A stretch of 42,298 nt of DNA from a virus. Of this stretch, positions 15,215 to 31,600 are shown piece after piece. Both the position numbers and the translations under genes were made by a program. The DNA lies in IMG/VR virus record IMGVR_UViG_3300046710_000057, positions 86,339 through 128,636 of that record; one strand, given 5' to 3'. The notes under the pieces are model-generated. The model was not told the DNA's origin and ran no database searches. It saw nothing but the letters and a program-made list of their open reading frames with translations. Numbering within the stretch: the first letter of the stretch is position 1; every line of letters starts with the position of its first letter.

Positions 15215-15229
15215 CTGGAGGACTACCTA

Positions 15230-15487
15230 ATGAGTAGCGAAACAGAAGACAAGTCGTTTGCCGTTCGTGAACTGCTTCCTGGTCAGGAAGAAGGACAGTT
15301 GGTTGCTGTCCATTGTGAGAATCCTGATTGTGGGAAAAATCCCAAATCAGGCATCAACTTTGGCGGTTCACGGTTGCTAGGACGGTATTATCCTGGCACT
15401 CGCGGCGAAGTCAAATGCCCTCGTTGCGGCCATGTCAACAAGTTCAAGGTGGCAGGAGGTCGCTTTACGGCTGTTAAGCCAGGGTAA
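15230..15487 (+). CDS. Mu Com-like zinc-finger protein
   Basis: VHC-x4-C ... RLLG ... GEVKCPRCGHVN matches the Com-family pattern (C..C..LL...EIKCPRC..IN). SD GGAGG. Confidence 0.7.
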   Translation: MSSETEDKSFAVRELLPGQEEGQLVAVHCENPDCGKNPKSGINFGGSRLLGRYYPGTRGEVKCPRCGHVNKFKVAGGRFTAVKPG

Positions 15488-15503
15488 GGAGGTGTGACCT
15501 ACA

Positions 15504-15980
15504 ATGAAGCTCGAAGAGAAAACATTAGAACTAGCCAAGCAGAGCATTGGCGTTACAGAAGAAACTCCGAATTGGGGGCGTTGGGTTAGCGTATACCTGA
15601 AGTTTGTAGGCATATTCAGTCCTGCGCCCTGGTGTGCTGCTTTTGTGGCATACAAGATTCATCAAGCTGCTGGTCAACTCAACGTCAAGGCAACTTGGCC
15701 GAAAGCTGGCTATGTGCAGAGCGTGGTCAACTGGGCCAAGAAAAAAGTCTTGGTTGTGCGTGTCCCACTGCCGAACACGGTATTTGCGGTTTGGCATCCA
15801 GAACTCAACAGATATGCACACATCGGATTTATAGCTGCGGTGCGCAAATCTGGGAGCAAAGTAGAGTTCTTGTCTGTTGAAGGTAACTCTAACACTGACG
15901 GTAGCAGAGAAGGTAAAGCTGTGGTCAGTCAGTGGAGAACCTGGAACGACGCTAAGTACATTTGCATACTCATTCAGTAG
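15504..15980 (+). CDS. CHAP-domain peptidoglycan amidase/endopeptidase
   Basis: IGVTE...N.G..V..YL, PWCAAFV (catalytic Cys), HIGFI (His) and SVEGNS. SD AAGGAGGT. Confidence 0.88.
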   Translation: MKLEEKTLELAKQSIGVTEETPNWGRWVSVYLKFVGIFSPAPWCAAFVAYKIHQAAGQLNVKATWPKAGYVQSVVNWAKKKVLVVRVPLPNTVFAVWHPELNRYAHIGFIAAVRKSGSKVEFLSVEGNSNTDGSREGKAVVSQWRTWNDAKYICILIQ

Positions 15981-16057
15981 AGATTGGATGAATCTTAGTC
16001 AATCAATCCTGTTGTAGAGTATAGATAAAGTAGACTATGCAAGGAGGTTGTGCGGCA

Positions 16058-17683
16058 ATGCCTGTGATTAACAAGTCAGATGAAATGAAACGCTGGTTGA
16101 GCAAGACTCCTTCGTGGTCTAAGGACGATGCTGAAGGTGTGGTTGGTGGTGTCAAACTAGACAACAACGGTCTTCTCTATATGTCTGGGGGAGACTATGA
16201 GATTGAACAGCCGATGTTCAAGTCATTTTTGGACAACAATGGTGATTTGATTATCGAAGGGTATATGTGTTCGCAGCGAAGAACTCGCAGAGGTGAACGT
16301 TGTCGAAACTACTGCTTTGCCGGTAGTATTGATGACTATATGAAGAACCCTACGATGCTTTTCAATCACAACATGGACCAACCTGTAGGCCAAGTTCTTG
16401 ACCTTCGGATGGACGACAAAGGCACTTGGGTCCGCTGCAAGATTCTCGATGATGCAACCAAAGTGATGATTCAGGATGGTCGTCTGCGAATGTTCTCTTG
16501 GATGGGATATGTTCGCGATTGGTCTGTCGAGATGGACCCTGACCCTGCATACGCTCAAAAAGAAACGCTTTGGATAAACAAGGCCGAATTGCTTGATGTA
16601 TCCGTTGTTTCTATCGGTAACGTTCCTGATGCTCTATTCCAGATCAGCAAGGCTGCGGATGGCAAGATGGATTACTCCATTTGGTGTCCGTTTGATAAGA
16701 ACGCTACTGACGAAGAGAAGCGAATGGTATACGGATATGCCACGATCTTCGGCCAGCGAGACGCTGACGGTCATAGAATGACCAGAGAAGCGATAGAACA
16801 AGCACTTCCTGCATATGCAGAGTTCCGAAATGTGCGAGAAATGCACCAACTTAAAGCTGTTGGGACTGCTCCGATTCTTGAGATTGACGACAAAGGGCTG
16901 CGTGTAGGAGTTCATGTCTCTGAAGGAGCACAAGATGCTTGGCTGAAAGTCAAGGATGGAACCTACAAAGGGTTCTCGCTTGGCGGTATGATTCACGAAA
17001 TGTCGCCTGAGAAAGATTTGACGAGAATATCGTTTGATGAAATCTCATTTTGCGACCGACCCAAAGTTCCTGGCGCAGTTTTCTACTTGGTGAAGTGTCA
17101 GGACGGAGAACTGGTTATCTGCCAGGACGAAGGAGGTGTCACAATGGAGGAAGAGCAGATTAAACCGGAGGATTCCGAACCGGAAAAGGGTAAGAGCGTT
17201 ATCGACAAGTTCCTTGCTTTGATAAGAGGTGAGGGGCAGGAAGAGGTAGACGTTCTTGGTGAAATGGGTATCGACCTTTCAAAGTATGCTACAAGTGAAG
17301 ACGTTCAGACACTTTCTACCCAAGTTGGTGATCTGACCTCTGCTGTTGCAGAACTGATCGAAGCGGTATCCGCGAACACCGAAGAGGAACCGGAGAAGCC
17401 GGAAGGTGAAGAGGAACCGGAGAAACCGGAAGAGCCGGAGAAGCCGGAAGATGAACCGGAGAAGCCGGAAGACGAACCTGACGAGAATGTTGTTGTCCTT
17501 TTGCAGAAGATTGATACTCTTATTGCCACTGTTACGAGTCTCAGTGACAGAGTAGAATCAATCGAGAAAGCCAAAGGAGTCCGACATTCTTCTGAGGCAA
17601 CAGGCGACGAAGAAGACGAACACAAATCCGTCTTTGCAGGCGTTGTTCCTGACATTCGACATAAGACAAGACTCGGAGAATAA
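16058..17683 (+). CDS. prohead maturation protease (two tandem HK97/XkdF-type domains) fused to scaffold
   Basis: SD AAGGAGG at 16041 favours ATG 16058. Domain 1: IEGY..LFNH..PVG..FSW.G..L.DVSVV. Domain 2: VYGYA..REMH..AVG..W.KVKDG.YKGFS.GG..EISFCDRP. Acidic coiled-coil C-terminus. Confidence 0.85.
   Translation: MPVINKSDEMKRWLSKTPSWSKDDAEGVVGGVKLDNNGLLYMSGGDYEIEQPMFKSFLDNNGDLIIEGYMCSQRRTRRGERCRNYCFAGSIDDYMKNPTMLFNHNMDQPVGQVLDLRMDDKGTWVRCKILDDATKVMIQDGRLRMFSWMGYVRDWSVEMDPDPAYAQKETLWINKAELLDVSVVSIGNVPDALFQISKAADGKMDYSIWCPFDKNATDEEKRMVYGYATIFGQRDADGHRMTREAIEQALPAYAEFRNVREMHQLKAVGTAPILEIDDKGLRVGVHVSEGAQDAWLKVKDGTYKGFSLGGMIHEMSPEKDLTRISFDEISFCDRPKVPGAVFYLVKCQDGELVICQDEGGVTMEEEQIKPEDSEPEKGKSVIDKFLALIRGEGQEEVDVLGEMGIDLSKYATSEDVQTLSTQVGDLTSAVAELIEAVSANTEEEPEKPEGEEEPEKPEEPEKPEDEPEKPEDEPDENVVVLLQKIDTLIATVTSLSDRVESIEKAKGVRHSSEATGDEEDEHKSVFAGVVPDIRHKTRLGE
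17144..17683 (+). CDS. putative nested scaffolding protein (internal in-frame start, 179 aa)
   Basis: AAGGAGGTG at 17130-17138 precedes the in-frame ATG 17144 (MEEEQIK...), exactly where the second protease domain ends. Confidence 0.65.
   Translation: MEEEQIKPEDSEPEKGKSVIDKFLALIRGEGQEEVDVLGEMGIDLSKYATSEDVQTLSTQVGDLTSAVAELIEAVSANTEEEPEKPEGEEEPEKPEEPEKPEDEPEKPEDEPDENVVVLLQKIDTLIATVTSLSDRVESIEKAKGVRHSSEATGDEEDEHKSVFAGVVPDIRHKTRLGE
17381..17485 (+). repeat. PEKPE repeats (GAACCGGAGAAGCCGGAA-like) in the scaffold
   Basis: EEEPEKPEGEEEPEKPEEPEKPEDEPEKPEDEPDE. Confidence 0.9.
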
Positions 17684-17715
17684 CTTATCATAGAAAGTTA
17701 GGAGGTGACAATCAA

Positions 17716-18708
17716 GTGGAAATCAATGAGCAACTAAACAAGGCCATTATGGTAGCGACTCTCTCTCCTGGTGGTCGGTTGAACACTGAACAGGCTCGGA
17801 CCTTTATCGACCTGACGGTTGATAGTACGGCACTCATCAAGATGTGTCGTATCATGAGGCCGACCAACGTTCAGGGTGAGTTCGGTAGGTTGCTGTTTGG
17901 CGGAGTTGTAACCGAAGGCGCTAATGAGAACGTTGACAGTGGGAATCTTGTCGTACCGACTCACAGCAAGATCGAATACGCTACCAAGAAACTGCGGTCT
18001 GCTATGGACATCACTCGTGAAACGCTCGAAGAGAACATCGAGGGCGAAGGTTACCAGGATACAGTTATGAACTCCCTGGGAACTAGAATCGGCGTTGACC
18101 TTGAGCTTCTGGCTATTCTGGGCGACACAGTGGCTTACGCTGCTGACGACTCGAATACCGGTAGACTGCTCAAGCACAACAACGGTTGGTTCAAACTGGC
18201 GATTAGTGGCGATGGTACTAATCCTGGTGGACACACCGTTGACTGCGCTGGCGCTACGATCTCGAAGACCATCTTCTCGAAGATGATTCGTGCTCTTCCG
18301 GTTCAGTTCAAACAGAATAGGGCTGCGCTGCGAATCTTCGCCTCGCCGTCCATCATTCAGGACTACCGTGATAACCTGGCGAACAGGCTGACCTCACTCG
18401 GCGACCAGTCTCTCGTTGGTGCTGACCCTCTCAGAGTGTTCGGCGTTCCGATTGTAGAGATTCCGCTCATCCCTGAAGACATGGATTCGTTGGACGGTAG
18501 CGATACATGGGGCGACGCCTCATTTATCTGGCTGTCCATTCCGGCGAACTTCGTCCACGTTATCACCAGGGAGATCGACGTTTACTGGGAGTACAAACCA
18601 AGGAAGGATGCTCTCGAAGCGACGGTCTATACTAGGGTCGATGACATTCTTGAGAACGAGGATGCTATCGTTACCGGTTATGACCTGCGCGTTGCTGGCG
18701 CATCCTAA
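17716..18708 (+). CDS. major capsid protein (HK97 fold, PBSX XkdG/YqbE-like)
   Basis: GTG start with TAGGAGGTGA. Motifs GGRLNTEQARTFID, DIT.ETLEENIEG, DLELLAI.GD and GVPIV.IPLIPED. Follows the protease/scaffold and ends ...VAGAS. Confidence 0.92.
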   Translation: MEINEQLNKAIMVATLSPGGRLNTEQARTFIDLTVDSTALIKMCRIMRPTNVQGEFGRLLFGGVVTEGANENVDSGNLVVPTHSKIEYATKKLRSAMDITRETLEENIEGEGYQDTVMNSLGTRIGVDLELLAILGDTVAYAADDSNTGRLLKHNNGWFKLAISGDGTNPGGHTVDCAGATISKTIFSKMIRALPVQFKQNRAALRIFASPSIIQDYRDNLANRLTSLGDQSLVGADPLRVFGVPIVEIPLIPEDMDSLDGSDTWGDASFIWLSIPANFVHVITREIDVYWEYKPRKDALEATVYTRVDDILENEDAIVTGYDLRVAGAS

Positions 18709-18726
18709 TCGAGATAACGTCGTGAT

Positions 18727-18748
18727 AGGAGGACCATTTTGAGTCCCA
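18727..18748 (+). promoter_or_regulatory. shared 22-nt translation-initiation element, copy 1 (AGGAGGACCA-TTTT-GAGTCCCA)
   Basis: 18 of 22 nt are identical to 26452-26473. Contains the SD and TTG start of the GT9 gene, and GGAC/GTCC can pair. Confidence 0.6.
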
Positions 18749-20004
18749 CAGGTCGTTTTCTTACACTTCGCGGCGGTATCACATACAGGTTGGACGACAA
18801 CGTGTTCCACAAAGATATTCCTGTGCCAATAAACGATGATCGAATCTTTTATCGTTTAATACACACCGGAGTATTCGAGGAAACACCCCCTCTATGTTAT
18901 TACCACATCCGGCATTCGGACCCCACACAGACAAATCCTCGCATCATTCAGATGAGTAACGGTGATTTTCTCCGCACATCTCATGACACTCCCATCAGAA
19001 TGTCACGTTGGCAGTGGCAACAAGTTCGGTATCATCAGTATCTTGAGGTTATGCCACCATTGGAGGTTATCAAGTATCTAGGGAAAGAGGATTTTAGTCT
19101 GATGATCGTCCGAGATATGGGCGTAGGGGATGTAATCATTTGCACAGACCTTGCGTATAATCTCAAGAGGGCGTTTCCTCACTCTAAGATCACGTTTGCT
19201 ACGTCTGAACGATACAAGTCTCTCTTCAATGATCTTGGCTTCGTTGACGAGGTAGTAACTATTGGGACTGTAGACCCTGTTGATTGGGACATCTCTGTCA
19301 ACCTTTGTGGATACTGTGAGCAGTATCCTGCCTGTGCGCATTATCACCGTGCCGATCTACTCGGTCAGGCGTTTGGAGAGTTCCCTTGGAGTGAGGAACG
19401 AGGCGTCCACTTGACATTGAGCATTGAAGAGGAGAAATGGTTTGAGGCATTCAACTCTGAATACAATCCAGAATCGAAGCCGGTCGTTGCGTTACAGCCG
19501 TTTGGAAGCAGTGCTCACCGATCTATGCAGCTTGAATCTATGATTGGCCTTTCTCGGTGGCTCATTGGCGAAGGATACCACGTCTACATCTATGGTCAGA
19601 GTCCAGCCCTTGATCTTGTTAAGTCAAATAAAGATTTGACGATTCTTAATGAATGTCTGGAGTTACGAGAGATATTGGCTATCATCAAAAACAGCGAGTT
19701 TGTCGTAACTCCAGATTCATCAGGGTATCATATTGCGGCAGCATTTGACGTTCCTTCGTTTCCTGCCTTTACAACTATTCATGAACAGGTGCGCGTTCGA
19801 GACTACAATCGTTGTTATCCAATCAGGATAACTGATCTGAACTGTTCTCCTTGTTGGGATAGCCCTTGTGGGACCAAGGATACTCCTTGTGTCACATATC
19901 TGACGGCAGAACGTCTGATTGAGCACATTCAGAAATACAGGTCACAAGGTTATCCTTACATCCGGCAACCTGAGTACCATCCTGCCATAAAGGTGTTGAA
20001 ATGA
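18739..20004 (+). CDS. GT9 (heptosyltransferase-like, GT-B) glycosyltransferase with N-terminal YqbF-like domain(s)
   Basis: RDMGVGDVI, FP.SKIT, VALQP.GS..HR, L.LRE..AII, TPDSS.YHIAAAF.VP and C.PC...C. Has an extra ~110-aa N-terminus. Confidence 0.85.
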   Translation: MSPTGRFLTLRGGITYRLDDNVFHKDIPVPINDDRIFYRLIHTGVFEETPPLCYYHIRHSDPTQTNPRIIQMSNGDFLRTSHDTPIRMSRWQWQQVRYHQYLEVMPPLEVIKYLGKEDFSLMIVRDMGVGDVIICTDLAYNLKRAFPHSKITFATSERYKSLFNDLGFVDEVVTIGTVDPVDWDISVNLCGYCEQYPACAHYHRADLLGQAFGEFPWSEERGVHLTLSIEEEKWFEAFNSEYNPESKPVVALQPFGSSAHRSMQLESMIGLSRWLIGEGYHVYIYGQSPALDLVKSNKDLTILNECLELREILAIIKNSEFVVTPDSSGYHIAAAFDVPSFPAFTTIHEQVRVRDYNRCYPIRITDLNCSPCWDSPCGTKDTPCVTYLTAERLIEHIQKYRSQGYPYIRQPEYHPAIKVLK

Positions 20005-20585
20005 CATTGCACAAGTTTGATGCGCTCATTATCAATAGAAACGTAACATTCGACGCTTGTCGTGTGGTCAAAAGTTTCATTGATTATGGGATTGATATAG
20101 CGTGTGTCGCTGGTATAGGCACGGCTGACCCAGGATTTCTTGTTCGAGATGCCGCTAGAGATTGTGGCAAGAATCTCTTGATTATACCAGGCGCAGTGTT
20201 AGTTGCGAGCAAGATTAACCGCGTCTTGATTATAGGCGCTGTTGACAAAGTTGTAGTTCCTAACAACACTCCACTGAAGGAGATTATAGACATAGCCCAC
20301 GCCAACAATGGGATAGTCGTGGCAATGAATCCAACCAGCATCATAGATGAGGAGAGTTGGACTCTCATTGACGCCTCAATCGTGTATGACAACGCAACGT
20401 TGGCTTGTTCGATTACTCAGGCGTCTTTTGCTATTACAGGTGATCGTATAGATAAAATCGGCAATTCGTATACGACGTTATATAGCAAGAACGTAAGATC
20501 GTACGAAGAGATGCAAAAGGAAATAAACAACTCGCCTGAATTGTTTGTTCCTTTCGTCAACAACGAAAGATTGGTCGCAAAGTAA
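20001..20585 (+). CDS. degenerate PHP-fold protein lacking metal ligands
   Basis: The scaffold pattern GID.A.V...LLIIPG...L.EIID.AH..NGIVVA.NP matches PHP phosphoesterases, but the His/Asp/Glu ligands are absent. Confidence 0.5.
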   Translation: MTLHKFDALIINRNVTFDACRVVKSFIDYGIDIACVAGIGTADPGFLVRDAARDCGKNLLIIPGAVLVASKINRVLIIGAVDKVVVPNNTPLKEIIDIAHANNGIVVAMNPTSIIDEESWTLIDASIVYDNATLACSITQASFAITGDRIDKIGNSYTTLYSKNVRSYEEMQKEINNSPELFVPFVNNERLVAK

Positions 20586-20587
20586 CA

Positions 20588-22405
20588 ATGGTCTATCAAA
20601 GTCATACTGGAATCAAAGCGTTACACGTCATAGAAACGTTTTGCATGGGTGGTGCTCAACGCATAGCGGTATCTATCTGTGCTGGGTTTCCTGGCTCGGC
20701 TGTTTGTTACTATCAAGCATACAATACTCCACCTTTGGCTTTCCCAGATTTGCTGGACAAGTATTGCATCAAGTGTGATCACATTCCACGATTTGAAGAT
20801 ATGGTAAGAAAGTTCAAATATGAACAATTTGACATACTTCATATTCATTGGTGTGGAGACGGCATAACAACAGATCGACTGACAAACTGGGATACCATCA
20901 GGGCAGAAAGAATCCCTTACATCATTTCGTCTCACTCGAACACCGTGTTCCCTTACAAACACTTGAACCTTATTTGTGAAGCCGAATCACAGTATAAAAT
21001 GCAGAAGTGTGAAACGAAGTTGATATACAACGGATTAGACGACTCTGATGCTTTCGTTTATGACCGAGAATACCCACAAAAAGACAAAATAGTCATCGGT
21101 TTTGTCTCAAGACTGGACGATAAGTTGGGGGTAAAAGCGCCGGTAAAAATGTGTGACGCCGTATCAACGATGAACAAGGCTTTCAAGTTTGTTGTGATAG
21201 GAGATGGTCTGCGCAGATCGTCGTTCGTTGATGTTTTCAAACAACGAAAGGTTGAGTTTGAAATGCTTGGAAACAGAGACGATATAAGTGAATGTCTGAA
21301 AGACCTGGACATCTTTTTGTATCCCACTCAAGCAGACAACTTCCCAACTGTGGTAACAGAAGCTATGTTGTCTGGCTTACCGATAGTCGCTCCGCCAATA
21401 GGAGATATACCATTCATGTTGGCTGATGGCAGAGGATATGCTATTGAATGGGAAGAGATGCCAGACGTGATGAAAGTGTTGTCAGGCAATCATAAGAAAA
21501 GACAGATTGTAGGTAATCGAGCAAAACAATTTGCCATGAGTGGATTTTCACACGAAACAATGATCAAATCATACGAAGAAGAGTATGTGAAGATCATTCA
21601 TGACACCAACAAGGAGTATTACAGTATGTCTGACGACAACGATTGCCTTACAGAACCAACGGTTTCTGTTGTTGTGCCGACGTACCGAAGGCCAAATGAG
21701 GCATATCGGTGCGTGCAATATTTGCTGAAGCAAGATTTGCCTGTCGAGATTGTTGTTGTCAACGATGGCGACTGTGAATCAGATTACAGCAAGGTCAAGG
21801 CACTGCCGGTGAAATATATTCAATTACAATCGAATCACGGCTTGAGTGCCGCACGCAATATAGGAATCAAGGCAGCAAAAGGCCAATACATCGGATTCTG
21901 TGATGACGACGACAGATGGTATCCGTCATTTGCCAGAAGACTGGCATTGGAACTCAAAAGGAAAGGCGCGTCGGTAGTTTATGGTGTTGGATTTGGGGTT
22001 CGTGGAACACAGGTTGTTGATAAGATAGACCTCAGAATGTTCGATGAACCGTTTGATGGCAAGGAGTTGTATTGCAGAAACTTCATTGCCATGCCTGCAA
22101 CGATGATTCGTAAGTCTGTTTTGGTCGAAGTTGGTGGTTTTGACGAAGCGATGCACCAAAATGGAATGTCAGGACCAGAAGACTTAGAGTTATGGATTCG
22201 GTTAATGCTTGCCGGACACAAGTTTGTAAGGTGTGCGTTCATCGGTCTTGTATACAACATGGGCGAAGAAAGGTTTACAACAACTACTGTCAACAACGGT
22301 GCTATGGCAAAGGGGATGCGGTATATCGCAGACAAACATAAAGTCGAATTAGGATATACCGATTCCAAAGGCAAAAACTTCTGCGAGGTAGACAACGATG
22401 AATGA
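20588..22405 (+). CDS. GT4-GT2 fused glycosyltransferase
   Basis: GT4: MGGAQR, GFVSRL..K, VIGDG, DIFLYP...DNFPTVVTEAM.SGLPIV. GT2: VSVVVPTY.R, VVNDG, GLSAARN.GI, FCDDDD, EDLELWIRL. Confidence 0.9.
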   Translation: MVYQSHTGIKALHVIETFCMGGAQRIAVSICAGFPGSAVCYYQAYNTPPLAFPDLLDKYCIKCDHIPRFEDMVRKFKYEQFDILHIHWCGDGITTDRLTNWDTIRAERIPYIISSHSNTVFPYKHLNLICEAESQYKMQKCETKLIYNGLDDSDAFVYDREYPQKDKIVIGFVSRLDDKLGVKAPVKMCDAVSTMNKAFKFVVIGDGLRRSSFVDVFKQRKVEFEMLGNRDDISECLKDLDIFLYPTQADNFPTVVTEAMLSGLPIVAPPIGDIPFMLADGRGYAIEWEEMPDVMKVLSGNHKKRQIVGNRAKQFAMSGFSHETMIKSYEEEYVKIIHDTNKEYYSMSDDNDCLTEPTVSVVVPTYRRPNEAYRCVQYLLKQDLPVEIVVVNDGDCESDYSKVKALPVKYIQLQSNHGLSAARNIGIKAAKGQYIGFCDDDDRWYPSFARRLALELKRKGASVVYGVGFGVRGTQVVDKIDLRMFDEPFDGKELYCRNFIAMPATMIRKSVLVEVGGFDEAMHQNGMSGPEDLELWIRLMLAGHKFVRCAFIGLVYNMGEERFTTTTVNNGAMAKGMRYIADKHKVELGYTDSKGKNFCEVDNDE

Positions 22406-23483
22406 CAATGCGCTTTCTGAATTGTTAGAACGAGAACCAGCAAGCATTGATTTGAAGGCTGAGACGTATCTAACCGGCAAAAAGGTTCTAGTGACTGGAG
22501 CAGGCGGAAGCGTCGGTAGCTATCTGTGCAAGATTATAGCGTATGCTCATCCTGCGCTGCTTATCCTGGTAGGACATGGCGAAGATTCGATACATCGTAT
22601 CTATGGCGATTTGCGTGCTCAATTTCCTACTGTAGAGATCGAGTTTGCTATTGCCAGCGTCGCACACGAATACCAGATGATGCAACTGTTTGAGCGGTAT
22701 AAGCCTGACTACGTGTTCCATGCGGCTGCACACAAGCATGTTCCTTTGATGGAAAACAATGAGCAAGAGGCAGTCAGGAACAACGTGATAGGGACACACA
22801 ATGTCGCTCAGGCAAGTGGGTATGTTGGGGTAAGGCAAATGGTCCTTATTTCGACGGATAAGGCTGTAGACCCATATTGCATCATGGGAATGACCAAACT
22901 GTTGGGCGAAGAAACGATGCGAATAATGAGCAAATATTGGCCGAACACTGCTTTCACTGCGGTTCGTTTTGGCAATGTTCTTGGTAGCACAGGTAGTGTA
23001 ATACCAATATTCGCCAAACAAATCGAATCAGGTGGACCAGTGACGGTAACTCATCCAGATATGACTCGTTACTTCATGACGCCTACTGAAGCTGTTTCGT
23101 TGGTGTTACAGGCTGGAGGATTCGGCACATCTGGGGAACTGTATCTGCTGGATATGGGAGAGCCATTCAGAATTACACGGTTGGCAGAGAACATGATCAA
23201 ATCCTATGGTCTTGAACCGTATACCGGCATTAGTATTGTCTTTTCAGGGGTAAGACCTGGAGAGAAGCTGACTGAGACTTTGATAGCAAACAACGAAGAG
23301 TTCAAACCTACATCAGACAAGCGTATACTGCTCGTTGTCAAACCTGACATGTTCGATAACGATGAGTTCTCTAAGATTCTTCATCGCCTTCGATACAAGG
23401 CCGACTGCACGACCGGCGCAGAGACACGAGAGGCGTTGTGCGAAGTTGTCGAGTCGATTACTCAACGGCGTATAATGAAGTAG
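22398..23483 (+). CDS. CapD/PglF-like UDP-N-acetylhexosamine 4,6-dehydratase (soluble catalytic domain only)
   Basis: VLVTGAGGSVGS, FHAAAHKHVPLME, STDKAV, MGMTK, VRFGNVLGS.GSVIP, MTRYFMT and RPGEKL.E. Confidence 0.92.
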   Translation: MNDNALSELLEREPASIDLKAETYLTGKKVLVTGAGGSVGSYLCKIIAYAHPALLILVGHGEDSIHRIYGDLRAQFPTVEIEFAIASVAHEYQMMQLFERYKPDYVFHAAAHKHVPLMENNEQEAVRNNVIGTHNVAQASGYVGVRQMVLISTDKAVDPYCIMGMTKLLGEETMRIMSKYWPNTAFTAVRFGNVLGSTGSVIPIFAKQIESGGPVTVTHPDMTRYFMTPTEAVSLVLQAGGFGTSGELYLLDMGEPFRITRLAENMIKSYGLEPYTGISIVFSGVRPGEKLTETLIANNEEFKPTSDKRILLVVKPDMFDNDEFSKILHRLRYKADCTTGAETREALCEVVESITQRRIMK

Positions 23484-23496
23484 GAGGTGAGCCGTA

Positions 23497-24156
23497 ATGT
23501 ATTGTACAGTCAAAAACATCACTGATCTTCTTGAGGGCGTAGACGAGTACGACCCTCTTGTTTGGACGGACGCTGCTGTTGCCAGTCTAGCTGACGATAT
23601 AGCCCAACCTTACTTTGAGGAAGTCCTTTGTGGCGGTCGAAGTTTTGGCAACGCTGAGTATACTGAACATCTGGATGGAACAGGAGACTGCTATCTTCGT
23701 TTGAGCAACTATCCGATTACCACGGTCAGCGCGTTGACGATAGACGGTGTGGTGGTTGATCTGACAGACCCAGCCGAAGAAGTGTTTATCTACAAGACTC
23801 GTATCGCCAGAAAGACCAATTTCCCATCAGGGATGCAGAACGTCGTAATCACCTACGAAGCTGGCTATGACACGATTCCCAAAAGCGTTGCTTCAGCTAT
23901 TGCTCTGTTGTGTGCTATGCACATATCTCGTGTCTGTGGCAGTGGTGGAGGGGCGATTGCAAGTGGCATCAGTGCTGGTCCTATTGCTCTAAGAGAGGCT
24001 TTCTCGGCTGCCGGTAAGTATTCGGACAAGATTTCCGACTGGAACAAGATCGTTCTCAAGACGGCACGTATCTATAATGGAACTAAGCCGATTGGTCAGC
24101 CTCGGAAGAATCAACCAGGCAAGTACTACGAACCGAGAACGGATAGGTGGTTGTAA
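23497..24156 (+). CDS. head-tail adaptor/connector
   Basis: YCTV..I start, E..DG.G...L.L..YPI..V, F..G.QNV.ITY.AGY..IP. SD AGGAGGTGA and position after the head genes. Confidence 0.8.
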   Translation: MYCTVKNITDLLEGVDEYDPLVWTDAAVASLADDIAQPYFEEVLCGGRSFGNAEYTEHLDGTGDCYLRLSNYPITTVSALTIDGVVVDLTDPAEEVFIYKTRIARKTNFPSGMQNVVITYEAGYDTIPKSVASAIALLCAMHISRVCGSGGGAIASGISAGPIALREAFSAAGKYSDKISDWNKIVLKTARIYNGTKPIGQPRKNQPGKYYEPRTDRWL

Positions 24157-24626
24157 TGACTGCTAACCCTGGGACATACTGGAAACGCAAGTTCAGAGAC
24201 AAGCTGAAGCCACTTATGTATTCAGTGCGCCTCTACCGGTATTCTTATGAGCCAACACACTGTCCTGGTGGATGGGGTAATGATCGTGACGAGTTCGACG
24301 TTGAAGCTGATGTCGCTTATCACATTGACAATCCGACTGCGACTGTTTGCCGTAACGGATTGCTGGGCGACATCGAGATACTGGACATCAAAGGATTCTA
24401 TTTCAGTAGCATGACATCTTCTCAACTGAAGATGCTGGCTATAGACACTTTGGATGTCAACGAAGGCGTGTTTGTGATCGACGGATACATCAACATGGAT
24501 TGGCCGGTAGTCATTGAGTATCCTGCTGACACTTTCCATTCGGTGATCTTTTGTCGTGACTTGGTTCTGGCTGACGTAGCGATTGCTCGGTATGCCAAGC
24601 TCAAGAAGACTGAGTATACGCCGTAA
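24156..24626 (+). CDS. putative head-closure (stopper) protein
   Basis: TAATG coupling with the adaptor gene, and position in the neck cluster. Confidence 0.5.
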   Translation: MTANPGTYWKRKFRDKLKPLMYSVRLYRYSYEPTHCPGGWGNDRDEFDVEADVAYHIDNPTATVCRNGLLGDIEILDIKGFYFSSMTSSQLKMLAIDTLDVNEGVFVIDGYINMDWPVVIEYPADTFHSVIFCRDLVLADVAIARYAKLKKTEYTP

Positions 24627-25120
24627 TGCAAACAAACGACTTTCGACAATTCACAGATCGGTTCAGAAAGTTCGGAGTCAACTTTCAACGAGAGTTCCAA
24701 CAGGAACTTGATGTGATGTGGGCCGACTTTGAAACAGATTTAAGAGCGGCGATTTACGAGGCTGCTCCTGATCAGATCAAAGCGTTTGCTACTGACCCAT
24801 CGGCACTTGAGCTAGTTAGGACCGAAACTGGTTGTCAGTTGAAACTTAACGCGCATGTGAAGCCAGGGCGTATATTGATAGTGTGGGAGTTGGGAGATAT
24901 AAGGTCTGTTCCTTATGAAATCACTCCTCGATTCAAAAAGGCTCTGATGTTCATTGGCAGAGACGGAGAGAAGGTCTTTGCTGCTCGTGTTGTCATTAAG
25001 ACGGCAGTGCCGCCACATCGGTTCATTAGATTGGCTTGGCGGAGAGTAACGAAGAAGTACCGTCAAAGGATAAACAGGGCTGTAGCGAATGCTGCTAAAA
25101 AGGCAGGCGAACAACTGTGA
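24626..25120 (+). CDS. putative neck/tail-completion protein (HK97 gp10-like)
   Basis: Basic protein with YEITPR.KKAL.F....VFA.RV...PP..FIR.A motif, in the neck position. Confidence 0.65.
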   Translation: MQTNDFRQFTDRFRKFGVNFQREFQQELDVMWADFETDLRAAIYEAAPDQIKAFATDPSALELVRTETGCQLKLNAHVKPGRILIVWELGDIRSVPYEITPRFKKALMFIGRDGEKVFAARVVIKTAVPPHRFIRLAWRRVTKKYRQRINRAVANAAKKAGEQL

Positions 25121-25614
25121 GTGACAACTTCATCAATGAGTTTCAGAGTGCGCTCAAGGCTTATCTTGAGTCCTACTTTAGCCTGAAGAATGCTGATGTT
25201 CAGGTAGACATTGGCTGGCCTAACTATACTGACAAACTGCCACTTGTTAAGCCGCACGTTACAGTCTCTATAGATGCTGACGTTACAATGGGTTCTCCTG
25301 GCTTTGGTGATCTCCTTGATGATGAAGAAACAACTGGAGCCATAGCAGAGTTTTCGGTATTTGTTGACGTGTGGACATCACGCGGAGGGTCTAACAAACC
25401 CAGCAAAGCTGGCGGCAAGACTGGTGCATCTAAAATCCTGGCTCTCGTCCTCAAGGCGTTCTCTAAGGACGACAAACTATGTTACGATGCGTGCTCGATG
25501 ATTGATGAGATCAAAAACTGTGAGAAGCGATACTCACGCAATCCTGCGTGGTTCGATGAAGCGGACATATTCCAAGAAAATGTCGAACTCACAGTGAGAG
25601 TGGTAGTTCAATAA
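25117..25614 (+). CDS. putative tail terminator
   Basis: GTGA overlap, P.VTV...F.VDVW pattern, immediately before the tail tube gene. Confidence 0.6.
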   Translation: MSDNFINEFQSALKAYLESYFSLKNADVQVDIGWPNYTDKLPLVKPHVTVSIDADVTMGSPGFGDLLDDEETTGAIAEFSVFVDVWTSRGGSNKPSKAGGKTGASKILALVLKAFSKDDKLCYDACSMIDEIKNCEKRYSRNPAWFDEADIFQENVELTVRVVVQ

Positions 25615-25690
25615 TCGTGCATTGTTTTCTGATCTCCACAGAGTAGGAGTATAAAGAAGAAGAAGACCTTGATAGGAGGTGACTTTGTAA

Positions 25691-26440
25691 ATGGATACTT
25701 CTGCGAGACAACTTGACAAAGGTCGGCGTATGCGAGTGTACGTCGGTGACCAGGGACCGATTGCTGGCGTTCAGGCGTTTGAAGTAACAGCTACCGAAGC
25801 TCTGAACAGATTCGGCGAGTACGATTCTGAAGAGCAGGTGATTGACGTTCAGATTCCTGAAACTAACGGCTTTGTCGAAATGTTCGACTCGGAACGAGTA
25901 GAGTTCTACAAGGCTCTGCTTGGTGAGACGGATGCTGCGAAGATTGTTGACCTGCGCATCGGTGACTTCGGTACACCGTGGATTGCGGTCAACGTCTGGA
26001 ACAAGGCGAAGACGAAATACGTGAAGGCGGCTTTCGTTAAGAGACCTACGTTCAACAACCATCCGTATCCGACCAACCTGAACGACTCGGTTATTCTGCG
26101 TTGGGAGTTTGCGGCCTCGACATTCGTCAAACTGCCGCATCACGCTTGCGCAATCGACACGTTCACTCTCGAAGAGGGTGCGAACCAAGTTCTGTCACTC
26201 TCGAAGTCTGCTGTTCAGCTTCGTGATGGGAGTTACGTTCTCGGCGCTGTAGAGAAGGTTAGTCTTGGTGGTACTCCTGCGAAATACGAGTATCTCGAAC
26301 TGACCGTCTCTGGTTCTACTTCTTCGGCCTGCACGGTTGCAAGAGGAGACGGAACCAGCCTCGGCGACGGCATCGTTCTGGTCTATTACGCCTATGTTTC
26401 GACAAGCGAGACAGCGGAATGGCCTGGGCAGACCGTCTAA
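25691..26440 (+). CDS. major tail (tube) protein
   Basis: Strong SD TAGGAGGTGA and codon usage resembling the capsid gene. Lies between the terminator and the chaperone/TMP genes, with no sheath gene present. Confidence 0.7.
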   Translation: MDTSARQLDKGRRMRVYVGDQGPIAGVQAFEVTATEALNRFGEYDSEEQVIDVQIPETNGFVEMFDSERVEFYKALLGETDAAKIVDLRIGDFGTPWIAVNVWNKAKTKYVKAAFVKRPTFNNHPYPTNLNDSVILRWEFAASTFVKLPHHACAIDTFTLEEGANQVLSLSKSAVQLRDGSYVLGAVEKVSLGGTPAKYEYLELTVSGSTSSACTVARGDGTSLGDGIVLVYYAYVSTSETAEWPGQTV

Positions 26441-26451
26441 TCGGAATCAAA

Positions 26452-26473
26452 AGGAGGACCACAAGGAGTCCCA
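26452..26473 (+). promoter_or_regulatory. shared 22-nt translation-initiation element, copy 2 (AGGAGGACCA-CAAG-GAGTCCCA)
   Basis: 18 of 22 nt are identical to 18727-18748. Starts 11 nt after the tail-tube stop and ends 2 nt before ATG 26476. Confidence 0.6.
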
Positions 26474-26475
26474 TT

Positions 26476-27429
26476 ATGATTACCCTTACAACTCCGATTT
26501 CTCAATCTAAGTCATACTGTTTCCATGACTACGCTCGTGGAATCTTCAACCTCGACTACCCCAAAGATCAACTCTACATTCTTTTCGTCGTTGATATGTT
26601 CGGCGAACAGGACGTTATGAAGAAGATCAAGTTATTCGAGGAAAGATGGCCTTATCCTGACAACGTTTTCTGTCTCCAGACATCAATCCAAGGCAACAAC
26701 ATTGTCAATTCTGATGCTGTCGATTGGAAGAAGAGAGCACAGATTGCTGCCGATCTTAGAGGAATGGCATTCGCCTATGCGCGTGGAAGACTAAGCGATA
26801 TGACGCATATCTTCTCAGTAGGCAGTGACATCATTCTTGCACCAGACAGTCTTCAAGACCTGCTCCTATTGAATGAGTGCCTCGGTTGTCATAGCGATTA
26901 CCCCAACCATCTGGTTTCTGGCCTGTATATGGCTCGTGGTAAACGATTACCATTATCGCTCCATTATGACGAGAAGACTCGTGATTGGGGTTATGATGAC
27001 ATCGACATTGAACGAGTAGACTCATTCAGGGCAGACTGGACTGGAATGGACGTAATGCTCATTGAACAGGCGGTCTACGAGACGGTTGACTTTGGCAAGT
27101 ATGACTTCAACAAGTACGGTCTCGGAGAAGATGGCTATTTCTGTATAGAGGCGCGGAACAAGGCGAATGCAGACCTTTGGATTCATTCTGGAGTTCGACC
27201 TATTCACGCACATAGTACCGGAGAGGGTATAGCCGCACGGCCACTTCCTCATCTGCGCATTGATCTGACCTGCCCATACTGCGGTTGGAAGTCAAGGATG
27301 GGGAAGGTCTATAAAGACGTTGAGGTTGCTTGTGGTGATTGCAAGAAGGTTTTCTGGGCCGACCCATTCTGGGCGGAGACTGCTTACTATGAATCCAAAA
27401 TCCCTGGCTACGGCCAACCACTAAAATAA
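26476..27429 (+). CDS. GT-A (GT2-like) glycosyltransferase with C-terminal zinc ribbon
   Basis: TPI....Y, LDYPK, HIFSVGSDII, VSGLY, TGMDVMLI..V, GEDGYFC and H motifs, then CPYCG...CGDC. SD AAGGAG at 26463 supports ATG 26476. Confidence 0.75.
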   Translation: MITLTTPISQSKSYCFHDYARGIFNLDYPKDQLYILFVVDMFGEQDVMKKIKLFEERWPYPDNVFCLQTSIQGNNIVNSDAVDWKKRAQIAADLRGMAFAYARGRLSDMTHIFSVGSDIILAPDSLQDLLLLNECLGCHSDYPNHLVSGLYMARGKRLPLSLHYDEKTRDWGYDDIDIERVDSFRADWTGMDVMLIEQAVYETVDFGKYDFNKYGLGEDGYFCIEARNKANADLWIHSGVRPIHAHSTGEGIAARPLPHLRIDLTCPYCGWKSRMGKVYKDVEVACGDCKKVFWADPFWAETAYYESKIPGYGQPLK

Positions 27430-27438
27430 CGGAGGTTC

Positions 27439-28323
27439 GTGATGTCGAAAGACAAGGAAACCCAAGAAGAAAGTAAGGCAACGGAGGAATTAAAGATTCC
27501 TAAAGTCAGAGACGCTGACGAAGTAACACCTGAAGCGGCTGATGAGATCGTTGAGGAGGTTCTTGACTATCAGGGTCGGCGAGCGGTTCCACTTCCTGAT
27601 GGAAGAACACTCTACATTCGGCTGCCTGACTCCGGCGAAGACCGAACTGCGGAAGAGATATACTCGAAGTGTCTCTTCAAATACAAGAAGGACGGAGTTC
27701 CGTTCATTGCCGGAATTGCTCAAATGGTTCTTGCCGAAGTTACTCATCCTGAAACATTCGGCAAAAGAGAGCGTCGAGTAATCAACGAGAAGGCTATCGA
27801 AGAGATAGTCGAGAAGCATAGAATAGAAATAGAGAGATGGGAAAAGGCGAAGAAGAAAGACCCTGAAATCGAAATCCCAGCAGAGCCGGATGTCCCTGAG
27901 CCTATCGTTGACGAGGGCAGTCCTTCTCTCAAGGAGATTCTGGACGGTCAAGAAAGTGGTCCGTTCTCCAAGACCAATCTGATCATGGCGTGTTTGGCTA
28001 ACACTGAATATGCCAACCTGGTTGTCCACTCAGCCGAATATATGGCTGGCCGTGAGCGGAGCCGGTACGTTGTCAGTCAGATCGTTGAGACTGTCAAGAC
28101 GGTCGAAGATGAGGGAGAAGCCAAGAGGCTTGAGTTTACATCGCTTTGGAAGCGACCGAAGGACCAGGACGCTGCTGAATCTATGAAGAGGATGCAGACT
28201 GAGAAGCCTGAGATCATTGGGTATCTTGAAGGGATGTATATTACATTCCAGCAAGAGGTACTCCAAAAGGATTTTTTGCAAAAGTTGTCAAGCGTTCAGA
28301 GCGATGGCGAATCCAAAAAATAA
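27439..28323 (+). CDS. tail assembly chaperone (short form)
   Basis: Acidic protein upstream of the TMP, with slippery T-TTT-TTG near its 3' end. Start is GTG 27439 or ATG 27442. Confidence 0.75.
   Translation: MMSKDKETQEESKATEELKIPKVRDADEVTPEAADEIVEEVLDYQGRRAVPLPDGRTLYIRLPDSGEDRTAEEIYSKCLFKYKKDGVPFIAGIAQMVLAEVTHPETFGKRERRVINEKAIEEIVEKHRIEIERWEKAKKKDPEIEIPAEPDVPEPIVDEGSPSLKEILDGQESGPFSKTNLIMACLANTEYANLVVHSAEYMAGRERSRYVVSQIVETVKTVEDEGEAKRLEFTSLWKRPKDQDAAESMKRMQTEKPEIIGYLEGMYITFQQEVLQKDFLQKLSSVQSDGESKK
28272..28278 (+). other. -1 programmed ribosomal frameshift heptamer T TTT TTG
   Basis: In-frame GAT TTT TTG. The -1 frame is open from here to 28631. Confidence 0.75.
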
Positions 28324-28631
28324 TTGCCAAGCGGCTTGACACTAATCCTTTGGACCCAAAGGTCAACAAACTCTATCACGACAAGTATGCTCGGTCTCTA
28401 GTCCTTATGGATTATCTCTACGATTCCTGGTTGGAGAAGAAGAGATTCGAGAGAGAGCAAGCGAGACTCGGTGGTAAACGAGTTGTTTCTTCATTCTCAG
28501 TTAATGAGGGTGACGACTTCGATGAGATGTTCGGTGGCGAAGAAAACGAACGCGATGACAATTTTGGTGTTTCAGACAACGCCAAAGAAATGGCGAAACG
28601 TTATGGCGTAGACGTAGGGGCTGATCTCTAA
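28275..28631 (+). CDS. tail assembly chaperone frameshift extension (G-T-like long form)
   Basis: The -1 frame reads FAKVVKRSERWRIQKIIAKRLDTNPLDPKVNKLY... and contains the listed 28350-28631 ORF, which lacks its own SD. Confidence 0.7.
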   Translation, partial: FAKVVKRSERWRIQKIIAKRLDTNPLDPKVNKLYHDKYARSLVLMDYLYDSWLEKKRFEREQARLGGKRVVSSFSVNEGDDFDEMFGGEENERDDNFGVSDNAKEMAKRYGVDVGADL

Positions 28632-31600
28632 TGTCGATGATGGACGATCTTACTTGGCGAATTGGTGTAATTCTTGATGCAAAACTCAAGAACATAGACT
28701 CAATTCGCCAAGAGTTTCAAGTAGCTGAAAAGGCTGCAACTAACCTGGAGGAACGAGTCAAGCAGGTTAGTGCCGCAGTTGACCGTCTGCACAGCCAAGG
28801 TTTTGGCGCTCAAAAGGGAATCAGCGAGGTCAGTTCAGCTATAGGCGTCCTCAAAAGCTACGGTGCTGAGATTCAGAACATTACGCAGCAACATAAAGTT
28901 GCCGAAGCATCCGCAAACCAACTCTTCAGCAAAATCACAGCAATGCAAAGTCGAGCAGGGAGTCTGACTGAGCGGCTTGCTGGCAAGCAAAACGAACAAC
29001 AGGTTGCTCTCGGAAACGCCAATGTCGCTAGAACACAAGGCGCATCTGCGGCTGTTATTGCTGGGTATCAAGTTGAAGCTGCTGCTGCTGGTCGATCTGC
29101 TGGCGGTCTTACGACGGCACTCAACAAACAAGAACAGCAGTTGGTTCGGTTGCGCCAAGAATATGCGCAAGTCGAAGGTCAAGTTGCTACATACAAAGAC
29201 CAAATGAAACAGGTCGAGAATGCAACAAAGACGATGAACTACGCTCCGTCTATTGTTACGTCGCCGCTCACCGGTTTGATAACAGACAATGAGAAAAAAA
29301 TCCCCATTCTCAGAAACCAGATGCGTAACATTGATGTAATCATAAAGAGATCACAAGCCAATGTTGCATCTGGCGCACTGAGTCAAGTCAATCCTGCTCT
29401 GTATGCCAGCAGAGCTAAAGCTGAAAACCAAATAGGTTTACTTCAGTTTGGCAAGAAATACAGTATGCCTGACCCTATGGCTCTTGTTCCTGCGAGCCAT
29501 CAAAATGCACCGTTCGGTCAGGATGTTGCTGCTGCTGCCACTCAAAGTCGTATGATCGACCAACAGATCGCTCAATTAAAGCGATTCGAGACACAGCAGA
29601 CTACTATCGGTATGCAGATGAGGCGTATTGGGAGTGACATTGGGTTCACAGCAATGCGGCTAAGTATGGTTACTGCTGGCATTGGAGCATTCTTCTACAC
29701 TGCTGCTACGCAAGCTGCCAACTTCGAGAAGAAAATGGCAGAAGTGAACTCCATCACGGACTATACGACGGAAGGATTCGCACAGGCCAAGACTGAAGTG
29801 ATGGACCTGTTTACGAACCTGCCTGTTAAGAACATTGACGACCTGACAAACGGCCTATACAACTTGATGTCGTCTGGCGTTAAAGCTGGCGACTCGATGA
29901 AGGTTCTTGAGTTGTCAGCGAAAGCCGCAATTGCTGGGCAGACAGACCTCGATACAGCATCTAAGGCTCTGATAGGAACGTTGAACGCCTTTGCTCTGCC
30001 GATGTCGGCAGCGAGCGATGTCCTCGATAAGCAATTCAAACTCGTCCAACTTGGCATTGGGCGTTACAAAGACTTCCAGCCAGTATTAGGCAAACTTGAA
30101 GTTACTGCCAAAGCAGCCGGTCAGTCTATTGCGACAACTTACGGCACTCTGGCTCAGTTGACTAGAATGGGATTTACACCACGTATGGGCGCGATGTCCG
30201 AACAGAGATTTATGGCTGATATGATCTCTAAGCGTGGCAAGATCAAAACTGAACTTGGTATTGATACTGTCGATGTCAACACCGGTAGGCCAAAAGAACT
30301 ATTGGTCTTCATGGCGGAATTGCAGAAGAGAGTCCAAGAGGGCAAAGTAAGTCTCGAAGGCATACAAAAAGCCCTTGGCAACATGAATAGCGTCAGATTC
30401 GTGCAAGCATTCTTGAGTCAGTTTGGTCAGTTCAAGGAACTCATCAACGAAACTGCAAACTCGGCAGGCGCTTGGGAGAGCGCATATAAGAAGGCCGTTG
30501 ATAATACGGCTGATCGTATACAGTTGTTAAAGAACCAATGGAATGCTGCAATGATTACTATAGGTGGTTCACCAGCAGTCAAGGCGGCAACTCTTGGTCT
30601 CATTACTGGTCTCAAGAGTGCTGTTGATTTCATGCGATCTGGCAACGGTGCGATTGCTAATTTTGCGGCGTCTATTCTTCTGATTACTGGTGGCTTTACA
30701 GGTTTAAGTGCGGCTGTGCTTACTGGGACTGCTGGCCTAGCACGATTCGTTGGTATGTTTGCTTCTGTTAAAGGTGCTGCTGCTACTCTTCAGATAGCCA
30801 AAATCGCATTTGGTCTCAGCAGTGTAGTCGGCGTTACAGATGTCGTGACAGGCAAAGTAATGGCAGCTAATGCAGGTCTGCAAGGTCTCGGACTGACTGC
30901 TGCTGGTACTGCTGGTGCTGTGAGTATGCTTAGAGTTGGCTTGGTAGCACTTGGCATAGCTTTGGTTGCATATGGCGTTAAGGCGTTCATTGACTATCTA
31001 ACGTCAGGCACGCGAGAAGCACTCAAACAGGCTGATGCTACAGCAGTATTGGCAGACAAGATACTCGCTCTCGGAGTAGTAACCGATAAATCTAGTGCGT
31101 CGTTCAAATCACAACAAGATGCAATGAACGATCTACGCAAGACGGTTCCTGAATTGGTTGCCCTCTATGACAGCGGAGCACTCTCTATGACAGAGTTTGG
31201 TCAGCGAGCAAAAGCTGCTGCTGCCGAAATGAAGCAACTTGCCAAAGAGAGACAATGGGGTGCTCCAGGTAGCAATGGAGATTGGAGAAACTCGATTGAA
31301 GGTTGGTGGAACCGAGGTATGTTGGGAGCACAAATGGAAGGGATTCCTGCTCCTGCGCCTGCTGAATTGCCAGAGACCGGCACAATATCGAAGGCAACTG
31401 CAAAGATTGGCATTCATGACACTCTGGTAGAGACCTACAAAGGGTTGAAGGATGCTGGAGATATACTCGGCAAAGCTCAAGACTCGTGGCAAAAAGCGTT
31501 AGAGAAGTCTGGCGGAAATACAAAAGCAGCCAAAGAATTGATGCAAAAAGAGGCTGACAAAGTACAGGACGAGATAAATGCTGTAAAAAACCGCATGATG

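Follow-up and report, generated by a model that had tools for sequence, protein, structure and literature searches.

The 42,298-nucleotide (nt) stretch of viral DNA analysed here, called the window, covers positions 86,339-128,636 of IMG/VR record IMGVR_UViG_3300046710_000057, a record of 128,636 nt. It carries two copies of a short hairpin. Each copy overlies a ribosome-binding site, one for the gene that comes next after the major capsid gene and the other for the gene that comes next after a putative tail-tube gene; both downstream genes are predicted to encode glycosyltransferases in this phage. Comparisons with uncultured relatives and with the target site of the Mu protein Com indicate that the hairpins are probably operators of a Com-like zinc-ribbon protein, which would govern how the glycosyltransferase genes and the gene for the protein itself are translated. 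The hairpin sites of the window are as follows.

18729-18748, + strand: hairpin 1 (W1) core, GA-GGAC-C-AUUUU-GA-GUCC-C-A, isolated fold of -4.8 kcal/mol
26454-26473, + strand: hairpin 2 (W2) core, GA-GGAC-C-ACAAG-GA-GUCC-C-A
27430-27444, + strand: degenerate site at the third junction, GGAGGUUCGUGAUG, 5′ half only, covariance-model E 2.6
15221-15238, + strand: third hairpin, at the com-like start, a candidate autoregulatory operator, GA-CUAC-C-UAAU-GA-GUAG-C, -2.7 kcal/mol, z -4.7

The hairpin template and its conservation

The first copy of the 22-nt element (18727-18748, AGGAGGACCATTTTGAGTCCCA) begins 18 nt past the stop of the major capsid gene, and the second (26452-26473, AGGAGGACCACAAGGAGTCCCA) begins 11 nt past that of the putative tail-tube gene; the distances from the stops to the hairpin cores are 20 and 13 nt. 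In W1, the Shine-Dalgarno (SD) sequence AGGAGG occupies 18727-18732 and the TTG start codon of the GT9-like gene (18739-18741) lies inside the loop, with its G being the G of the second GA. In W2, the functional SD AAGGAG is formed by the loop and the 3′ arm, 6 nt before the ATG at 26476. The third site of the window has lost its 3′ arm by deletion, and its SD is 6 nt from the ATG at 27442. With up to three mismatches allowed, 0.06 matches to the 22-nt pattern are expected per window and none of 100 shuffles contained three matches. The pattern occurs exactly twice in the 128,636-nt genome (the reversed control gave no occurrence), and its exact form was unmatched in IMG/VR beyond this genome.

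An initial annotation made from the sequence had pointed out the likeness of the two copies, and direct reading confirmed that they are identical at 18 of 22 nt, with the differences confined to the four central bases. The pairing of the GGAC and GTCC arms of both copies across an 8-nt loop, which holds the TTG in copy 1 and the SD portion AAGGA in copy 2, was likewise borne out. The same holds for the shared CTAATCG at the ends of both upstream genes (TAA 18706-18708 and 26438-26440); yet this sequence is probably a coincidence, because it is retained in no relative (TAAAGCG, TAAGCAC, TAATCTC, TAGTTGC, TAAGGAA, TAGCAAA and others). The annotation had also named a lack of conservation and many unrelated copies as grounds for abandoning its proposal; the pattern counts and chance estimate that it had called for gave the values above, unrelated copies are not numerous, and relatives retain the element.

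No cultured phage is close: the two junction regions had no match when cultured phages were searched at the DNA level, and neither tblastn with the Com-like protein nor a single-sequence search of IMG/VR with the tail-tube protein gave a match. Uncultured relatives were reached via the capsid protein (46-72% identity) and later via the Com-like protein. The hairpin lies downstream of the capsid gene in all ten distinct lineages with a readable junction (the window, L003, L004, L005, L007, L033, L085, L096, L097 and L101). The tail-tube junction carries it in four of four cases, namely the window, G002 and both tube modules of G001, with the stems GGGU/ACCC, GGAC/GUCC and GGGC/GUCC in G002 and G001 (twice), the last containing a G.U pair. 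At the third junction, between the GT-A-like gene and the next gene, it is present in three of four cases (once in G002 and twice in G001; the window site is the degenerate one), with GGAA/UUCC or GGUU/AACC stems and an AUG directly 3′ of the hairpin. When three complete genomes were searched with a covariance model built from alignment A2, the element was confined to these junctions, and the genomes had 2, 5 and 3 copies. In the distant clade L034-L037, whose capsid proteins are 46-48% identical, neither a GT9 match nor a capsid-junction hairpin was found, and the available parts of the loci (for L035, 8 kb upstream of the capsid gene) gave no com-like match. Minus-strand matches of the model in L035, three tandem copies, were rejected as part of a repetitive coding region with no GA before the 3′ arm.

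Contig G001 (123.8 kb), which contains L033, has two diverged copies of a module of tube, GT-A-like and next gene (L067 and L068), each with its own hairpins and each ~55% identical to the window protein. One copy lies at the contig end, and the pair is either a true duplication or an assembly join of two strains.

The hairpins share the template 5′-GA-N4-C-(N2-5)-GA-N4′-C-3′, in which the unpaired GA, C, GA and C (G7 A8, C13, G19 A20 and C25) are invariant. The invariant bases of alignment A2 are G7 A8 G9, C13, G19 A20, C24 C25 and A26, and its inner stem bases vary. Covariation analysis of this alignment showed pairing in 52 of 52 stem cells, with three of the four pairs varying on both sides; none of 500 shuffles equalled this result, and slid partners reached at most 65%. 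A realignment that included the Mu site (A4) was shifted by MAFFT and not used, and pairs were counted by script. The script tally of 21 instances including Mu gave 84 of 84 paired stem cells, 13 distinct stems and one G.U pair, with none of 5000 shuffles reaching this. In L101, the outermost pair changed from G-C to A-U, by which the SD-like GAGG is lost and the template is retained. The constancy of the unpaired nucleotides, which were recorded from the alignment before the paper describing the Com target was read, points to a trans-acting binder rather than to a bare structure. The window has one further look-alike, GAGGAAUUAAAGAUUCC at 27481-27501 within the coding sequence that follows the GT-A gene, which resembles the third-junction hairpin of the relatives; it is without C13 and C25 (model E 0.17) and is probably a chance match.

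Because all 20 phage copies lie on the coding strand and a G.U pair occurs, the element is taken to act as RNA rather than DNA. An inverted repeat in an intergenic position would also suit a DNA-level site, bound by a dimeric DNA-binding protein or acting as a promoter-like signal. However, the inner stem bases vary with constant complementarity and the G.U pair would be a G.T in DNA, which fits RNA pairing rather than base-specific recognition of DNA; the flanks are asymmetric, and no promoter signal was found at the sites. A DNA-level role is thus hardly credible.

The genes 3′ of the capsid-side hairpin differ between lineages. GT9 follows directly in some, an HNH_3 homing-endonuclease gene in L003 and L085 (L003:6042-6539 and L085:~6984-7180), and HNH remnants in L033, L096 and L097 (L033:10995-11105, L096:13976-14090 and L097:13601-13735); the HNH genes and remnants lie between the hairpin and GT9. 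The initial annotation had listed an insertion-site scar as an alternative, and the HNH genes and remnants give that idea a foothold on the capsid side, whereas the hairpin itself persists with or without HNH. A mobile HNH cassette would in this case have carried or left the element as its ribosome-binding site or target, with no regulation of glycosyltransferases. The HNH_3 open reading frames of L003 and L085 start inside or on the hairpin (Pfam E 5.6e-9), the remnants of the other three lineages are truncated, the first codons of the W1 gene (MSPT) resemble the HNH N terminus MIPT, and CCAGATTCT after the hairpin in L004, L005 and L007 matches an internal HNH stretch. Both the MSPT start and CCAGATTCT look like HNH deletion scars, and such a history would explain the variable spacing and the odd N termini on the capsid side. 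However, the tail-tube, third-junction and com-like sites are without an HNH gene or remnant, and the capsid-side hairpin is kept with compensatory changes after complete loss of HNH, indicating selection on the hairpin itself. As an account of the element, an HNH footprint is therefore very improbable.

Analysis of possible transcript-level functions showed no terminator on the + strand at either site and no relevant Rfam 15 match in 15000-29000 at E values up to 1. Intrinsic terminators have a G+C-rich stem of at least 5 bp and a U tract; the stem here has 4 bp (5 with the bulge), and a U tract is absent. The sole terminator-like call, at 26472-26455 on the − strand, corresponds to hairpin 2 read on the non-coding strand; a T-rich run comes next, and there is no gene there to use it. 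A processing or stability site, at which the late transcript is cut or an exonuclease is stopped so that the capsid and tube messages are stabilised apart from the enzyme genes, would agree with the position of the element 11-26 nt behind the capsid and tube stops whatever follows (GT9, HNH or remnants) and with the presence of GGAG, the target of T4 RegB, in many copies. However, GGAG is missing in L003, L005, L097 and the third-junction sites, the third-junction hairpin begins just 2 nt past the stop, and com-like starts carry the hairpin though no abundant gene ends there. Together with the lack of terminator-like features and of an Rfam match, this leaves RNA processing a small chance. K-turns or K-loops, CsrA sites (GGA in the loop) and RegB sites (GGAG) were each rejected because they suit only some of the 20 instances. 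A leader peptide was also set aside: L004, L007 and L005 have an ATG, TTG or GTG ahead of the 5′ arm, but neither the downstream frames nor their lengths are conserved.

The Com-like protein and the Mu Com site

The template of the phage element coincides with the known target of Com. Systematic evolution of ligands by exponential enrichment (SELEX) with a phage Mu/Haemophilus Com zinc finger gave the motif NGAGNNCC(N)2-3GAGNNCCNN with a stem of 3-4 bp (Nowacka et al. 2019, PMC6483171), and Com binds CC(N)2-3GAG in the loop, with both GA dinucleotides and the first loop C protected (PMC6483171). The native site in the Mu genome, GAAUGCCUGCGAGCAUCCC, reads GA-AUGC-C-UGC-GA-GCAU-C and has the same template. 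All 20 phage instances fit GA-N4-C-Nx-GA-N4′-C. Nine of them, including W1 and W2, match GAGNNCC...GAGNNCC exactly, and six of these nine have the 2-3 nt spacer. Wherever the phage element has an invariant unpaired base, the Com motif specifies that position, and at every site the hairpin overlaps either a start codon or the working SD.

The same data bear on a hairpin acting in cis without any protein, in which the last two G of the SD would pair with CC and dampen translation of the next gene. The GG of GAGG does lie in the 5′ arm of most copies, isolated elements adopt the hairpin as their minimum-energy fold (-2.2 to -6.5 kcal/mol), and the third site of the window, with its 3′ arm lost, has its SD at an ideal spacing as a damping hairpin predicts. 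However, sequestration leaves unexplained why G7 A8, C13, G19 A20 and C25 stay constant while the stem bases change, why the template occurs with stems that have no SD-like GG (CUAC, UUAC, GUGC and AGGA) and why it matches an experimentally selected protein-binding motif. In addition, an effective block would call for more stability than -2 to -6 kcal/mol. A purely cis-acting hairpin is accordingly considered unlikely.

A candidate for the protein is encoded 3.2 kb upstream of hairpin 1.

15230-15487, + strand: Com-like Cys4 zinc-ribbon protein, 85 amino acids, candidate hairpin binder; PF10122 is the top Pfam family, below the cutoff

The top match of this protein is PF10122 (Zn_ribbon_Com), with 16.2 bits (E 0.007) vs. 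a cutoff of 22.9. All six close homologues and 10 of 15 wider homologues likewise have PF10122 as their best family (best E 9.7e-6), and several homologues are labelled 'phage FluMu protein Com' by the Joint Genome Institute. Alignment of a 15-member profile with Mu Com by hhalign gave a probability of 70% (E 4e-5) over 22 columns (LLG..GT.GEI.CPRCG). Over the 15 members, C29, C63 and C66 are invariant, C34 is nearly so and C(P/S)RC is conserved; the four cysteines fall into two knuckles, as in Mu Com (C6, C9, C26 and C29; CxxC...CPRC). A PDB sequence search yielded no Com structure. On protein grounds alone, membership of the Com family is plausible. The com-like gene directly follows the portal gene in every relative with hairpins.

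The start of the com-like gene is itself a hairpin site. In the window, the SD GGAGG occupies 15217-15221, and the hairpin at 15221-15238 has the ATG (15230) in its loop. The com-like start of L100 is covered by GA-UUAC-C-UUUAU-GA-GUAA-C (1667-1685), again with the ATG in the loop, and that of L102 by GA-GUGC-C-GG-GA-GCAC-C (924-939), followed by the AUG. In L100 and L102, this hairpin is the sole template match on the scanned + strand of the locus. At ~11 template matches per strand per 128 kb, the expected frequency of a match within 20 nt of one particular start is about 2 in 1000, and three such coincidences are very unlikely to have arisen by chance. The initial proposal of a translational operator over the glycosyltransferase starts is thus supported by a hairpin that folds in isolation and covaries without mismatch, by invariant unpaired bases, by an architecture like that of the Com site and by the nearby Com-like gene.

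A Com template with an 8-nt spacer, GAGCACCGG(A/T)GATTTGAGTGCC, was also observed within the portal gene, ~175-190 nt upstream of the com-like start (L003:2136-2157, L004:6784-6805, L005:4899-4920, L032:3545-3566, L033:6786-6807, L086:3998-4019 and L088:1405-1426). It is confined to relatives whose com-like start has no hairpin and is absent in the window, L085, L096, L097 and L101. Its stem is invariant, and coding constraint is inseparable from a fourth operator here.

Mode of action of the putative operators

In the favoured reading, the Com-like protein, produced from the same late operon, would bind the hairpins and alter how readily the 30S subunit reaches the SD and the start codon. The operators would thereby set the translation of the enzymes from a transcript shared with the abundant capsid and tube proteins, and their role would likely be to uncouple the output of the modifying enzymes from that of the capsid and tube genes, which are highly translated and share this late transcript. 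A purpose in enzyme-to-substrate ratio or timing, as proposed by the initial annotation, is conjectural. The Com-like protein is the most likely binder.

The positions of the hairpins bear on the direction of control. G19 provides the start-codon G in W1, L003, L033, L096, L097 and two com sites, and G7 does so in L004_MTP, L085 and L101; in W2 and L102, and probably in L004 and L007, the loop GGAG serves as the working SD. A protein on the GA half-site should compete with the 30S subunit. Repression is favoured over activation of the Mu type, though not strongly, since the start codon or working SD overlaps a Com-contacted GA half-site and a regulator acting at its own start usually represses. 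The most specific version, that a Com-family protein represses itself and gates capsid- and tube-decorating glycosyltransferases via 18-20 nt operators behind the substrate genes, is tentative and stands slightly short of an even chance.

Several observations weigh against operators of a Com-like protein. The similarity to Com is weak and below the cutoff, the protein has Cx4C in place of CxxC as its first knuckle, and ~12 extra residues lie between the knuckles. The spacers of W1 and W2 are 5 nt, longer than the 2-3 nt of the SELEX motif. The energies of the isolated elements, from -2.2 to -6.5 kcal/mol, indicate weak hairpins, and 53-70 nt contexts gave no significant z-scores relative to shuffles and folded differently between relatives. 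In the same contexts, no conserved counterpart of the separate translation-inhibition hairpin of Mu was found. The loss of the third site in the window has had no obvious ill effect. Complementarity was a requirement of the scan that yielded the com-start and third-junction instances. Matches to the generic template are not rare, with 22 per genome vs. ~10.6 in simulations, and the sequence-only Com motif had 2 forward and 2 reverse matches in genome G000 vs. 0 and 2 in the reversed control. Because neither the template nor the sequence-only motif is rare, the significance of the sites rests on position, covariation and conservation. A larger riboregulator or a second hairpin like that of Mu was dropped as a candidate, as the 53-70 nt folds contained no conserved bigger structure.

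Comparison of the putative system with Mu com/mom showed both shared and divergent features. Shared are a small Cys4 zinc ribbon with a CPRC knuckle, a 4-bp hairpin at the ribosome-binding site of a modifying-enzyme gene, late expression, and a regulator and target on the same strand in an operon context. In Mu, com overlaps its single target, a gene for a DNA-modifying enzyme, and Com homologues of Mu-like prophages precede DNA methyltransferase genes (PMC3299994). In contrast, the phage targets would be the GT9-like and GT-A-like genes, encoding protein or glycan glycosyltransferases beside structural genes, 3.2 and 11 kb downstream of the com-like gene rather than directly after it. The phages have 2-5 operators per genome, plus one at the regulator's own start in some lineages. 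The phage hairpin covers the SD or start codon. In the Mu genome, the Com site is followed on its 3′ side by a second, inhibitory hairpin (CCCAC...GUGGG) that hides the start codon; Com binds next to it and opens it, which activates translation. The mechanism of Mu is not simply transferable, because no such separate hairpin was found at the phage sites. The phage loops extend to 8 nt, and the protein differs by its Cx4C knuckle, insert and sub-cutoff Pfam score. Finally, these phages are siphophage-like, roughly 115-130 kb in size and not transposable, unlike Mu.

In its logic only, the element also resembles the replicase operator of MS2/R17. It is a short SD-bearing hairpin (GAGG) with a predicted bulged A (a G7-C25 pair with A8 bulged) and a start codon at or just past the 3′ arm (AUGAGG...CCCAUG), and a bound protein would repress by occlusion. 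However, the upper stem has 4 bp vs. 2, the loop sequence is another one, and the capsid protein is not indicated as the binder. T4 gp43 and RegA are phage RNA-binding autoregulators that act on their own ribosome-binding sites, and RegA also acts on several others. Their operators are likewise small hairpins with loops of 5-8 nt beside or over the SD, whereas the proteins and motifs are unrelated.

Gene neighbourhood and implications

The genes flanking the two junctions were assigned as follows.

17716-18708, + strand: major capsid protein gene; phrog_1623, E 1e-72; 35% identity by tblastn to annotated major capsid proteins
18739-20004, + strand: GT9-like glycosyltransferase of GT-B fold; Pfam Glyco_transf_9
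25691-26440, + strand: putative tail-tube protein; position upstream of the 3906-residue tape-measure gene and an Atlas lead to Phage_tail_2 and other tail-tube families
26476-27429, + strand: GT-A/GT2/Anp1-like glycosyltransferase with a C-terminal zinc ribbon; Atlas features 0.94 and structural TM scores of 0.63-0.72 to GT2/Anp1/GT25 clusters

The tail-tube candidate had no Pfam or PHROG match. The protein of 26476-27429 is 44% identical to its L004 homologue. The two downstream glycosyltransferases had been described in the initial annotation as having unrelated folds. The GT-B side of this claim stands on the Pfam match, whereas the GT-A side has lead-level evidence from Atlas features and structure, with no Pfam match.

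The GT9-like gene opens a glycan cassette (18739-23483), in which a gene for an unassigned 194-residue protein, a GT4-GT2 fusion (20588-22405) and a Polysacc_synt_2 dehydratase (22398-23483) follow, the last two assigned by Pfam. The post-capsid cassette is variable between the window, L094, L096, L097 and L101; the cassettes of relatives add radical-SAM/B12-binding enzymes, methyltransferases and a nucleotidyltransferase. This variable content suggests different glycans in different phages. Upstream of the capsid gene, the prohead protease gene (16037-17683) encodes tandem protease-type domains, Peptidase_S78 and S78_2/XkdF, and relatives are annotated there as CLP_protease/SDH_protease. The open reading frame in the tape-measure position (28631-40351, 3906 residues) is unusually long, and the reverse strand of its repeat region contains two chance matches to the sequence-only Com motif. 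The strong SDs of the AGGAGG type probably fit a Bacillota-like host of the Gram-positive type. The P0006/L094 contig is labelled by NCBI as part of a 'Candidatus Izemoplasmatales' metagenome-assembled genome, a weak host hint, as phage contigs are often mis-binned.

The kind of regulation considered here is already known from com/mom, and glycosyltransferase-linked Com operators are undescribed in the literature searched. Com/mom has so far been seen as a Mu-like one-off, consisting of a single regulator, a hairpin and a DNA-modifying enzyme. Here, the RNA template recurs at several ribosome-binding sites in unrelated, uncultured large tailed phages, before enzymes of probable virion glycosylation. 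New in comparison would be several operators per genome, one of them autoregulatory, glycosyltransferase targets located next to the structural proteins that they presumably modify, a ribosome-binding site that doubles as the operator, and a divergent branch of Com in large uncultured tailed phages. Confirmed binding would extend the Com family to multi-target and autoregulatory control and would provide a searchable signature, GA-N4-C-N-GA-N4′-C at a ribosome-binding site near a Com-like gene. It would also offer a way to study how a phage balances modifying enzymes against abundant structural substrates encoded on one transcript, and the pair of an 85-residue protein and an 18-20 nt hairpin with a tolerant stem would be an attractive part for translational control. 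If the proposed reading is true, these phages contain the first Com regulon outside DNA modification, and it would serve as a built-in device for setting the enzyme-to-substrate stoichiometry in virion glycosylation.

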